In this document: in pieces, positions 17,144-19,025 of the stretch | Layout of the letters: each line of letters begins with the position of its first letter | Position numbering within the stretch: the first letter of the stretch is position 1 | Assembly (NCBI GenBank): GCA_944386165.1 | Contig: CALXAA010000004.1 | Location: 1,105-65,104 of the forward strand | Direction of reading: 5' to 3' | Length of the DNA stretch: 64,000 bases | From: an uncultured Clostridia bacterium | Lineage (GTDB): Bacteria; Bacillota; Clostridia; TANB77; CAG-508 | Notes under the pieces: generated by a model | The model's database searches: none | Seen by the model: the letters and a program-made list of their open reading frames with translations, nothing else | Told to the model about the DNA's origin: nothing | Position numbers and translations under genes: made by a program

Positions 17144-17764
17144 ATGGAAAAAAATATTGAAAAAGAACTAGAAGAATTTAAAAAATTTAAAGAAACGTAT
17201 AATTATACATTAAAAGAAATTCGAGAAATTGATGGAAAAGAATATTTAGATGGAGAACCATTAATAGATGAAGAAGGAAACGAAATAGGAGATTGTGAAA
17301 AATGGATAAATGTTGGATATAAAAGAAAAGGACCATATGCAAAAGTTCTTTCAAATTTATTTCCATATGAATTTGAATTTAGAGACAAGAAATTGAGTAG
17401 TATAGAATCATTTTTCCAAGGAATAAAATTTAAAAACATAGAAATGCAAAATTTAGTATTTTCTTATCATAGCTTAAATTCCAATTATGTAAAAGTATGT
17501 AGTGGATATGATTGGAAACAGACAGGAATAGTTTATTGGCAAGGAAAAGAAATTGATAGATATAGTAAAGAATATGATGACATAGTAGATGAATTATATA
17601 TATCAGCAATTCAAAATCCATTATATAGAAATATTTTGAAAACATGTGAAAGAAATATTATACACACCATGGGAGCAAAAGAAAAGAATGAAACAGTGTT
17701 TACAAGATATGAATTTGAAAAACAATTAAATTGTTTAAAAGACTTTTTAAAGAAAGAAGAATAG
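17144..17764 (+). CDS. NADAR-like (YbiA/DUF1768-like) domain protein, tentative
   Basis: LSNLFPYEFEFRDKKLSSIESFFQGIKF aligns by eye with the FSNF...SEHYFQAQKF core of NADAR. The downstream region is helical. The catalytic-residue match is imperfect. Confidence 0.45.
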   Translation: MEKNIEKELEEFKKFKETYNYTLKEIREIDGKEYLDGEPLIDEEGNEIGDCEKWINVGYKRKGPYAKVLSNLFPYEFEFRDKKLSSIESFFQGIKFKNIEMQNLVFSYHSLNSNYVKVCSGYDWKQTGIVYWQGKEIDRYSKEYDDIVDELYISAIQNPLYRNILKTCERNIIHTMGAKEKNETVFTRYEFEKQLNCLKDFLKKEE

Positions 17765-17768
17765 AAAA

Positions 17769-19025
17769 ATGGAAGAAAAATTAAGCATAAAAGATTTTGA
17801 TATAGTAGGAATTATTACCTTGAATGATGTAGATGGAATAGAAAAATATGTAACACCTGTAAAACATGAAGGGAAGACAATAAAATATCTATCTCGTTCA
17901 AAGGAGTATTATAATGTAAAAAGCATGACCGAATTAGCCTTAGAAAGGGAAGAATTAAAAGCAAAATTAACAAGAGAATTAACAAAAAAGAATTTTGTTA
18001 TTTTAGAAAATATGTTGAATTGTTCTGGAAAAGTATATTTCAAAAAATTTGAAGAATATATTATGGGAAAAAAAGATTTAAGAAGTAAAATTCAATTACA
18101 ACAAGCAGAAGAATGTTTAATGGAAGATGTAAGAAATATTTTAGTAATATTTCAACAAAAAGGTTTAATAGAATTAGATCCTAGAAAAATACTTCCTGTA
18201 GGAGAAGAAAATTCAGCCAAAAGAGCAATTGAAATGGATAACAAAGCAATGTTATATATTTTTGCTAAATCATTAGAAATAAAAAAAGATTGTCAAAATG
18301 TAGAAGTTTTAACACCTGGATATGGAAGCATATATATAGGGCCATTTTTAAAAGCAATGTATGGATGTAATTTTACTAACATTCTAAAAAGTAAATACAT
18401 ATCAGAAAGCAAAAGACTTGAAAATGCAGATATGTTTTCATTAATGTCAAGTGATAGACCTTTAGAAAGTGGAAAAACTGTCCTATTGTTAGATGATAAT
18501 ATAGGCACTGGATCAACCATGTCAGAAATTCAAAAACAATTAGTTGGTAAAAATGTAAAATCAATTATTTCAGGTGCAGTACAATATAATTGGAGAAATT
18601 ATTTTAGAGTAAGCATAGGAGAGAAAAAAGATATAGATAGATTTGAAGTTAATGATTTTGACATTGTAACTCCATTTAATTATGCAGGGCATAAATTATA
18701 TAAACATGCTATAGATTTATTACATTCTTCAGGAAATGAATATATAGAATATTTAAACTCAAAATCATACAGAAAAGAAGAATATTGCGATTTAGTTGGT
18801 TCAATATATAGGTCATTAATCTGTGCAAGTAGAGTAAAATTAAACTTAGCAGAAGATTTGGCTCTTCCATATGATATTGAAAGTGAAAGTGTTAATTTAT
18901 TGGATAGATATAAAGATGGACCAAAAAATATTACAAATCCAATATCAAGTAAAATTATTAAAACATTAATTTATAATGTAATGAGTATTAATGATATTAA
19001 AATTATAAAAGAAAGAAGCAAGTAA
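17769..19025 (+). CDS. Phosphoribosyltransferase-domain protein with unrecognised N- and C-terminal extensions (418 aa)
   Basis: It has the type I PRTase PRPP-binding loop VLLLDDNIGTGSTM. The start lies 5 nt after the upstream stop. The first roughly 170 aa and last roughly 150 aa are unrecognised. Confidence 0.7.
   Translation: MEEKLSIKDFDIVGIITLNDVDGIEKYVTPVKHEGKTIKYLSRSKEYYNVKSMTELALEREELKAKLTRELTKKNFVILENMLNCSGKVYFKKFEEYIMGKKDLRSKIQLQQAEECLMEDVRNILVIFQQKGLIELDPRKILPVGEENSAKRAIEMDNKAMLYIFAKSLEIKKDCQNVEVLTPGYGSIYIGPFLKAMYGCNFTNILKSKYISESKRLENADMFSLMSSDRPLESGKTVLLLDDNIGTGSTMSEIQKQLVGKNVKSIISGAVQYNWRNYFRVSIGEKKDIDRFEVNDFDIVTPFNYAGHKLYKHAIDLLHSSGNEYIEYLNSKSYRKEEYCDLVGSIYRSLICASRVKLNLAEDLALPYDIESESVNLLDRYKDGPKNITNPISSKIIKTLIYNVMSINDIKIIKERSK

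Follow-up and report, generated by a model that had tools for sequence, protein, structure and literature searches.

A NADAR-superfamily gene coupled to an uncharacterized phosphoribosyltransferase gene in gut Clostridia: a possible writer/eraser module

Organization of the gene pair

A 64,000-nt stretch of contig CALXAA010000004.1 (assembly GCA_944386165.1) from an uncultured Clostridia bacterium, hereafter the window (G+C content of ~27%), carries two closely spaced genes that we term A and B. Gene A encodes a 206-aa protein of the NADAR superfamily and gene B a 418-aa protein in which a phosphoribosyltransferase (PRTase) core is set between novel N- and C-terminal regions; the coordinates of these and all other features are collected in Table 1. 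The TAG stop codon of A and the ATG of B are separated by 4 nt, so that an earlier note on this DNA was right about the close pairing and one nucleotide out in giving the distance as five, and the two genes are probably translationally coupled. The further claim that the pair has a promoter of its own is plausible: a sigma-70-like site and an upstream terminator are both present, but the promoter scan as a whole was not enriched relative to shuffled sequences, and the site is best regarded as suggestive. Because the terminator is followed by the promoter-like site and by an AGGAGG ribosome-binding site before A, the pair plausibly constitutes its own bicistronic unit, from which the strong terminator sets the upstream DUF84 gene apart.

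Protein A, an AdfN-type NADAR

NADARs have newly been recognized as erasers of base ADP-ribosylation, and most bacterial members of the superfamily have no known role. The NADAR-like character of A, first read by eye from a resemblance to YbiA, is borne out by profile searches, in which residues 66-200 of A match positions 4-138 of the 138-position Pfam model PF08010 (Phage_30_3) with 90.2 bits (cut-off 36; E = 1.3e-25). A also matches PHROG 652 (phrog_652). No match to the classical NADAR model PF08719 was obtained in Pfam at E <= 0.1, a sequence search of the PDB with A returned no match, and the likeness to YbiA is confined to the motif, over which a combined A/gp30.3 profile matches the YbiA structure 2b3w weakly (E = 0.26).

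The T4 protein gp30.3, renamed AdfN, is a proven NADAR-superfamily DNA ADP-ribosylglycohydrolase that counters DarTG1 and requires E36 and K43 for its activity (PMC11257639). When A was aligned directly with T2 gp30.3 and a Vibrio phage homolog, it shared 30% identity with the T2 protein (30-35% over the core), and its E88 and K95 fell in the same alignment columns as E36 and K43 of T2/T4 gp30.3; a separate alignment of 20 A relatives showed both residues, together with the SNLF...E..FQG.K motif, to be invariant. The bond cut by NADARs joins ribose C1 to an exocyclic amine, and for DarG1, AdfN and YbiA it is that of guanine-N2-ADP-ribose (PMC11257639, PMC11125620). Judged from its sequence, A is an active-looking member of the AdfN clade of the NADAR superfamily.

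The N-terminal extension of A, ~65 aa in length, is conserved in every B-linked relative, including a copy in which the gene order is swapped (locus L109, below), and is missing from the gp30.3 proteins of T4-like phages. Short-form relatives of A occur in ~1,500 phage genomes, and those among the matches listed are T4-like phages of Proteobacteria with at most 36% identity to A; the long form, with its N-terminal extension, was found in none of the phage relatives. A gp30.3/AdfN-family NADAR, otherwise matched here only in T4-like phages, is in the present case a conserved chromosomal gene in abundant human-gut Clostridia.

Protein B, a PRTase core in an unfamiliar setting

The type I PRTase character that the earlier note had read from the loop VLLLDDNIGTGSTM of the 418-aa protein is supported by a match of residues 174-274 to PF00156 above its cut-off (32.7 bits versus 26.3; E = 5.6e-8). 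Loop residues D242, D243, N244, G246, T247, G248 and T250 are invariant in the close-family alignment, and the D-D-N and T of this loop, which would bind phosphoribosyl pyrophosphate (PRPP) or ribose-5-phosphate, are still invariant when distant relatives are aligned. The AlphaFold2 (AF2) model of B is confident, with a predicted local distance difference test score (pLDDT) of 84 and a predicted template modeling score (pTM) of 0.89. Searching the PDB and BFVD with this model in Foldseek matched a core of ~125 residues alone, with APRT and HGPRT at the top (probability 1.0) and Bacillus subtilis PurR also among the matches; a sequence search of the PDB returned only noise. The regions on either side, which had earlier resisted assignment, belong to no family and have no structural counterpart in PDB or BFVD by Foldseek. 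Both are conserved, the N-terminal region through the invariant motifs SRSKEYYNVK, NFVILENMLNCS and IEMDNK, and the C-terminal region through NYAGHKLYKHAI...LHSSG..YIEYL. We consider B to contain a genuine type I PRTase core that looks catalytically competent.

The possibility that B is an ordinary salvage PRTase or a ComF-like protein, which the earlier note had named as an outcome that would undo its reading, is contradicted by profile scores far under the cut-offs. NCBIfam models for salvage PRTases, ComF and Prs gave ~23 bits or less against cut-offs of 113-327, the best being TIGR01251 (23.3 bits versus 113), with 19.8 bits for ComF (cut-off 233) and 19.7 bits for HGPRT (cut-off 150). Scores for APRT, PRTase_2 and the retron III-A PRTase were likewise far under their cut-offs, and B had neither a ShosT/PsyrT match in PADLOC nor a match to PF15610. 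An exhaustive hidden Markov model search of 1.84 billion proteins recovered only 125 representative relatives, indicating that the B family is rare and uncharacterized.

Linkage of A and B

The earlier note had proposed looking for the pair as a conserved dyad in other genomes, and such a dyad was found. A search seeded with B identified 19 genome loci, nearly all labelled Clostridia or Clostridium and mostly from uncultured gut metagenome-assembled genomes (for example Clostridium sp. CAG:780), with A immediately upstream of B in 19/19. The reciprocal search seeded with A yielded 80 metagenome loci, 74 of which extend for at least 150 nt downstream of A; B starts within 80 nt in 51/74 of these, no B at all is present in 17/74, and a disrupted B starting more than 80 nt from A is found in three more (L036, L070 and L106). 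The spacer between the genes is 4 to ~12 nt in most loci. This adjacency is far beyond chance. Relative to the window copies, B diverges faster than A (43-75% versus 59-93% identity).

Two loci, L109 and L111, have the order B then A, and here an 834-aa long form of B overlaps a long-form A, indicating that the link survives both an inversion of gene order and a changed architecture of B. The N-terminal ~450 aa of the long-form B in L109 have no Pfam match and show a Cys/His/Asp pattern by eye. A weak HIT-like gene (L109 3620-4099) follows the pair.

Loss of B with retention of A

Among the loci examined, whether seeded with B or with A, B was never found without A. Of the pooled loci, those seeded with B included, 16 have no B and ~5 have a B that is frameshifted or truncated; wherever B is lacking, A is still an intact open reading frame (ORF) that retains the catalytic motif. 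Dereplication of the A genes at 95% identity gave 37 species-level groups, 27 with intact B, 7 with absent or disrupted B only, and 6 polymorphic.

Comparison of closely related contigs shows how cleanly B can be missing. Locus L060, which carries B, and loci L061, L066, L067 and L099, which do not, have flanks of 99.3-99.7% nucleotide identity; in the B-less allele the 1,329 bp of B (L060 3628-4956) are cleanly missing with no remnant, and the next gene starts 5 nt after A. The 98.9% identity between L077 and L095 stops exactly at the A stop codon. Locus L032 comes from a close relative of the window organism, with an ENPP gene 97% identical to that of the window, and lacks the segment corresponding to window positions 17779-20110 (B and the PHP gene); its A gene is 92.7% identical to the window copy against the 97% of ENPP, which suggests recombination at this locus. 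Altogether, presence/absence polymorphism of B between contigs of 97-99.7% identity occurs in at least three species. Disruption of B takes other forms as well, namely frameshifting deletions of 14 nt in L036 (relative to L034) and 16 nt in L070 (relative to L060), the sister contigs of each pair being 99% identical, and the loss of a large internal stretch of B in L107; A is intact in all three. In locus L106 (3001-4848), A is interrupted by a single in-frame stop and B by several frameshifts and stops; this locus was set aside because its assembly is probably error-rich, and would otherwise represent decay of the whole module.

B depends on A, and A does not depend on B. Orphan A was found and orphan B was not, a pattern generic to type IV toxin-antitoxin systems, and the repeated loss of B by itself is in keeping with an effector that is costly or dangerous. 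The naturally occurring alleles that carry or lack B, set in flanks that are 99% identical, also allow a direct genetic comparison.

Distant relatives of B and their HisA-like partners

Distant members of the B family are found in fusion with other domains. Three proteins (P0274, P0299 and P0308) and the deeper-branching P0326 join B to a HisA-like TIM barrel, and in P0271 and P0291 an APH/Bud32-like kinase domain precedes B and the barrel. The best match of the barrel is TIGR00007, with E ~1e-20 and a score far under the cut-off of that model. Two further relatives (P0259 and P0278) are long forms of B of ~800 aa with an N-terminal domain of no known family. A profile search with the divergent B proteins recovered only 12 proteins, all of the HisA-fusion group. 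Gene neighborhoods were inspected for P0369, P0367, P0286 and P0308 (loci L028, L029, L030 and L031, respectively): the HisA-like barrel is a separate gene after the B relative in L030, exosome, proteasome, RNase P and archaeal ribosomal protein genes mark L029 as clearly archaeal, and in L031 the fusion adjoins an APH-type kinase gene and a haloacid dehalogenase (HAD) hydrolase gene. The HisA-fusion loci look like an uncharacterized pathway.

HisA isomerizes N-(5-phosphoribosyl)-amine linkages. The partners of the B family, NADAR in one branch and HisA-like barrels in another, would thus both act on bonds of the type expected from a PRPP-dependent phosphoribosyltransferase with an amine acceptor, and the fusions connect the B family to archaeal enzymes and give independent access to the question of its product.

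Genomic context

The NUDIX, ENPP-like and PHP genes noted previously beside the pair are indeed present (Table 1), in a neighborhood that is common to close relatives only and does not accompany the pair elsewhere. In PADLOC, the NUDIX protein matches the candidate-defense model PDC-S07 (E = 2.9e-12), probably through domain-level likeness only. Elsewhere in the window, a 212-aa ORF at 15706-16344 (minus strand) has a weak NTP_transf_5 match (E = 0.04) and no NCBIfam, PHROG or PADLOC match, and a T-box leader (RF00230) at 55733-55957 (plus strand, 114 bits) is the sole Rfam match at gathering score.

A phage or prophage origin of the pair was considered and rejected. B had no match in 50,697 curated phage genomes, and three divergent B subfamilies had no viral-contig matches. 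Matches in IMG/VR lie at contig ends (B in L112, A in L113 and L114, with L112 and L114 being the same contig). In L112 (IMGVR_UViG_3300029720_000467, 2055-5299), the contig among these that was inspected, a large serine recombinase gene and a CI/LexA-like repressor gene stand directly downstream of B, so that its viral flag is explained by a prophage integrated beside the pair, the pair itself being host flank.

Table 1. Features of the A-B locus and its surroundings (window positions unless another locus is named)
Feature	Position	Strand	Details
DUF84 / NTPase_I-T gene (inosine/xanthosine triphosphatase family)	16531-17028	+	PF01931, E = 2e-36; separate transcription unit in the window
Intrinsic terminator hairpin ending the upstream DUF84 gene	17027-17059	+	RNA fold -23.5 kcal/mol, z = -8.64 versus shuffles, then U-run UUUUCUUU
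Sigma-70-like promoter candidate for A-B	17085-17113	+	TTGAAA-17-TAAAAT, 10/12 consensus positions
Ribosome-binding site AGGAGG	17133-17138	+	5 nt before the A ATG; read from sequence
Gene A, NADAR superfamily, gp30.3/AdfN family (PF08010)	17144-17764	+	206 aa; contains LSNLFPYEFEFRDKKLSSIESFFQGIKF
A, N-terminal extension (aa 1-65)	17144-17338	+	Alignments with relatives and phage gp30.3
A, putative catalytic motif S70-N71...E88...Q92-G93-x-K95	17351-17428	+	Alignment with gp30.3
Gene B, PRTase core between novel N- and C-terminal regions	17769-19025	+	418 aa
B, N-terminal region (aa 1 to ~170), beta-hairpin and long helices	17769-18278	+	Alignment, model secondary structure
B, predicted PRPP / ribose-5-phosphate binding loop (aa 238-251)	18480-18521	+	Type I PRTase motif
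B, C-terminal helical region (aa ~283-418, ~135 residues)	18615-19022	+	Alignment
PHP gene	19071-19982	-	
ENPP-type phosphodiesterase gene	20147-21295		
NUDIX gene	21381-21893		
Long-form pair (also in L111)	L109 495-3627		834-aa B directly upstream of 220-aa A

Proposed mechanism and alternatives

The family assignments, the conserved catalytic motifs, the strict adjacency of the two genes, the fact that B depends on A and the repeated loss of B alone are all observed. Building on them we favor, at a little short of an even chance, a reading in which A-B is a writer/eraser module operating in the manner of a type IV toxin-antitoxin system. The PRPP-binding core of B would attach a 5-phosphoribosyl group to a nitrogen nucleophile, most plausibly an exocyclic amine carried by a guanine-like base of a nucleotide or nucleic acid, with the novel N- and C-terminal regions supplying target recognition. 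A would then hydrolyze the N-glycosidic bond made by B and so hold the product of B in check. Since A is translated first and the start of B follows within a few nucleotides, the anatomy of the operon suggests that B would never be made without its antidote. PRPP as the donor, the nature of the acceptor and the toxicity of B are put forward by analogy, as would be any anti-phage role; a role in defense appears doubtful to us because the context of the pair is not defense-like. The writer/eraser and toxin/antidote-like logic raised by the earlier note gains support from the absence of B without A and the persistence of A when B is deleted or frameshifted.

Several observations weigh against a toxin-antitoxin module. 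The neighbors of A-B are housekeeping genes that vary between species (nrdD and miaB in the window; murC, mraY, ftsW, murG, holB, POR and serS in a second genome; pyk, der, plsY, gpsA and spoIIIA in a third), which rules out the location in a defense island that had been envisaged, and equally a location in a mobile element; no integrases, transposases or known defense genes appeared in the look-ups reporting genes beside the pair, and PADLOC gave nothing significant for A or B. A is highly conserved, persists alone and looks like a core gene, possibly with a housekeeping role of its own, and if B were an optional step using the product of A, the absence of B without A would be explained as well. 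The distant relatives of B sit in housekeeping and partly archaeal neighborhoods, with kinase, HisA-like and HAD genes, and look metabolic. PRTase folds also act as sensors of PRPP or ppGpp, and PurR is among the matches of the B core. The fold of A is unconfirmed, its AF2 model having a pLDDT of only 45.7 from a shallow alignment (72-92% identity), and the locus counts overstate the number of independent events, as the same species recur among the metagenome contigs.

One alternative, which we consider rather unlikely, is an operon for metabolism or house-cleaning. Acting on a nucleotide that is damaged or unusual, A would be a core N-glycosidase whose products are a base and either ribose-5-phosphate or ADP-ribose, with B an optional PRPP-dependent salvage or conversion step and DUF84 a feeder of the same pathway. 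Escherichia coli YbiA, a damage-control N-glycosidase in riboflavin synthesis that also cleaves ribosylamino-pyrimidine 5'-phosphates, offers a precedent that favors this reading, and the housekeeping context free of mobile elements, the high conservation of A and its retention upon loss of B, and the fusion or proximity of distant B relatives to HisA-like barrels and APH-type kinases, which has the look of a biosynthetic pathway and in L029 is clearly archaeal, all agree with it. DUF84 adjoins the pair in 14/19 genome loci and lies directly upstream in 26/64 A-seeded loci, and an HAD phosphatase gene follows B in L025-L027, where DUF84 is at 8731-9243, and in L031. However, DUF84 is missing in more than half of the loci and in the window is separated from A-B by the terminator. 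If one N-ribosyl bond were both made by a PRTase and cut by a hydrolase, the result would moreover be a futile cycle unless one of the two enzymes proofreads; presence/absence polymorphism and repeated frameshifts among 99% identical strains are rare for metabolic genes; and all experimentally assigned two-gene NADAR pairings that we found are toxin-antitoxin or defense systems.

Less probable still is that B is a PRTase-fold sensor or regulator which binds PRPP, (p)ppGpp or a nucleotide in the manner of PurR or PyrR and controls or targets A through its extra domains. The PurR among the structural matches of the core is bound to ppGpp, helical sequence outside the PRTase core accounts for ~70% of B, the N-terminal extension of A is partner-specific, and the tight translational coupling is consistent with complex formation. 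Against a sensor stand the complete acidic D-D and the T-G-x-T loop, invariant even in very distant relatives, and the repeated fusion to a HisA-like enzyme domain, which argues for catalysis; in addition, A works without B in many strains, and no DNA-binding domain was detected in B with Pfam. Finally, A could be a phage-derived orphan antitoxin that acts like AdfN against foreign guanine ADP-ribosylating toxins, with B an unrelated neighbor, and although its closest characterized relatives are phage AdfN proteins and it persists alone in many strains, we regard this as very improbable given the 19/19 adjacency that survives order inversion and a change in B architecture, the short spacer in most loci, the confinement of the N-terminal extension to B-linked copies, and the fact that B was never found elsewhere in a genome without A.

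Comparison with known systems

The proposed writer/eraser module has counterparts among systems in which a NADAR undoes a ribosyl-type modification of a base and so serves as an enzymatic (type IV) antitoxin, as in DarT1-DarG1 and YbiA-YarT; in the latter, the NADAR gene precedes that of the toxin, just as A precedes B in the window. The toxins DarT1 and YarT have an ADP-ribosyltransferase (ART) fold and use NAD+, whereas B has a PRTase fold and presumably uses PRPP, so that its adduct would be phosphoribosyl and not ADP-ribosyl. No DarT or other ART-fold partner of A was detected by Pfam or PADLOC, and its sole partner is the PRTase-fold B. AdfN shares PF08010 and the same catalytic Glu and Lys with A, but it is a 152-aa orphan gene product of T4-like phages of Proteobacteria that lacks the 65-aa extension, in contrast to the chromosomal A of Clostridia with its coupled PRTase gene. 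ShosTA/PsyrTA, type IV toxin-antitoxin systems that function in defense, provide a toxin that is a non-canonical PRTase and needs PRPP binding for toxicity; their antitoxin is a DprA-like DNA-binding protein and not a NADAR. With APRT, HGPRT, OPRT, ComF and PRPP synthetase, B has the core fold and the PRPP loop in common, whereas it is more than twice the size of salvage PRTases, with conserved extra regions and a rare, narrow distribution. In E. coli, ybiA is associated with ybiB (TrpD2). In the literature surveyed, of which coverage was incomplete, we found no description of the B family or of an operon combining a gp30.3-type NADAR with a PRTase.

The closest parallel is DS-32, a PRTase and NADAR pair of E. 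coli (WP_000097610.1 and WP_032260665.1) that was identified by DefensePredictor and validated in anti-phage defense, and which its authors view as toxin-antitoxin partner swapping relative to DarTG (10.1101/2025.01.08.631726; PMC13092281). The view that A-B is not a described system therefore stands only in part, as a NADAR plus PRTase cassette has already been validated, although both of its proteins come from other families. Using the sequences from the supplementary tables of that paper, DS-32A was identified as a PRTase-CE protein (PF24390; 134.9 bits, E = 6e-39) and DS-32B as a PF08719 NADAR. B scores 15.7 bits against PF24390, under the cut-off of 27, and aligns with DS-32A by hhalign at a probability of 0.1%, while A and DS-32B align at a probability of 5.7% over only 40 motif columns; orthology was rejected in both cases. 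The likeness is thus one of two-gene PRTase-fold and NADAR cassettes at the superfamily level only, and the window pair is an analog of DS-32 and not a member of it. The order in DS-32, PRTase then NADAR, is that of L109 and the reverse of that in the window, and DS-32 occurs in E. coli, whereas A-B is found in gut Clostridia among housekeeping neighbors and its PRTase has large extra domains.

The A-B pair, a surprise for specialists in NADARs and ADP-ribosylation, yields a directly testable hypothesis, that of PRPP-dependent base phosphoribosylation. At its broadest, and here we are speculating beyond what we think likely, B would represent a new enzyme family that uses PRPP to phosphoribosylate the guanine exocyclic amine in DNA, RNA or nucleotides, a base modification different from ADP-ribosylation, AdfN-type NADARs would be its dedicated erasers, the HisA-like barrels of the archaeal relatives would process the same linkage, and three independent pairings, A-B, DS-32 and ybiA-ybiB/TrpD2, would be faces of one so far unrecognized nucleic-acid phosphoribosylation biology. 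A PRPP-derived modification reversed by NADARs is, to our knowledge, chemistry that nobody has demonstrated. Taken together, A-B and DS-32 indicate that the pairing of a PRTase with a NADAR arose at least two times from unrelated families, a recurrence that points to just such a modification.

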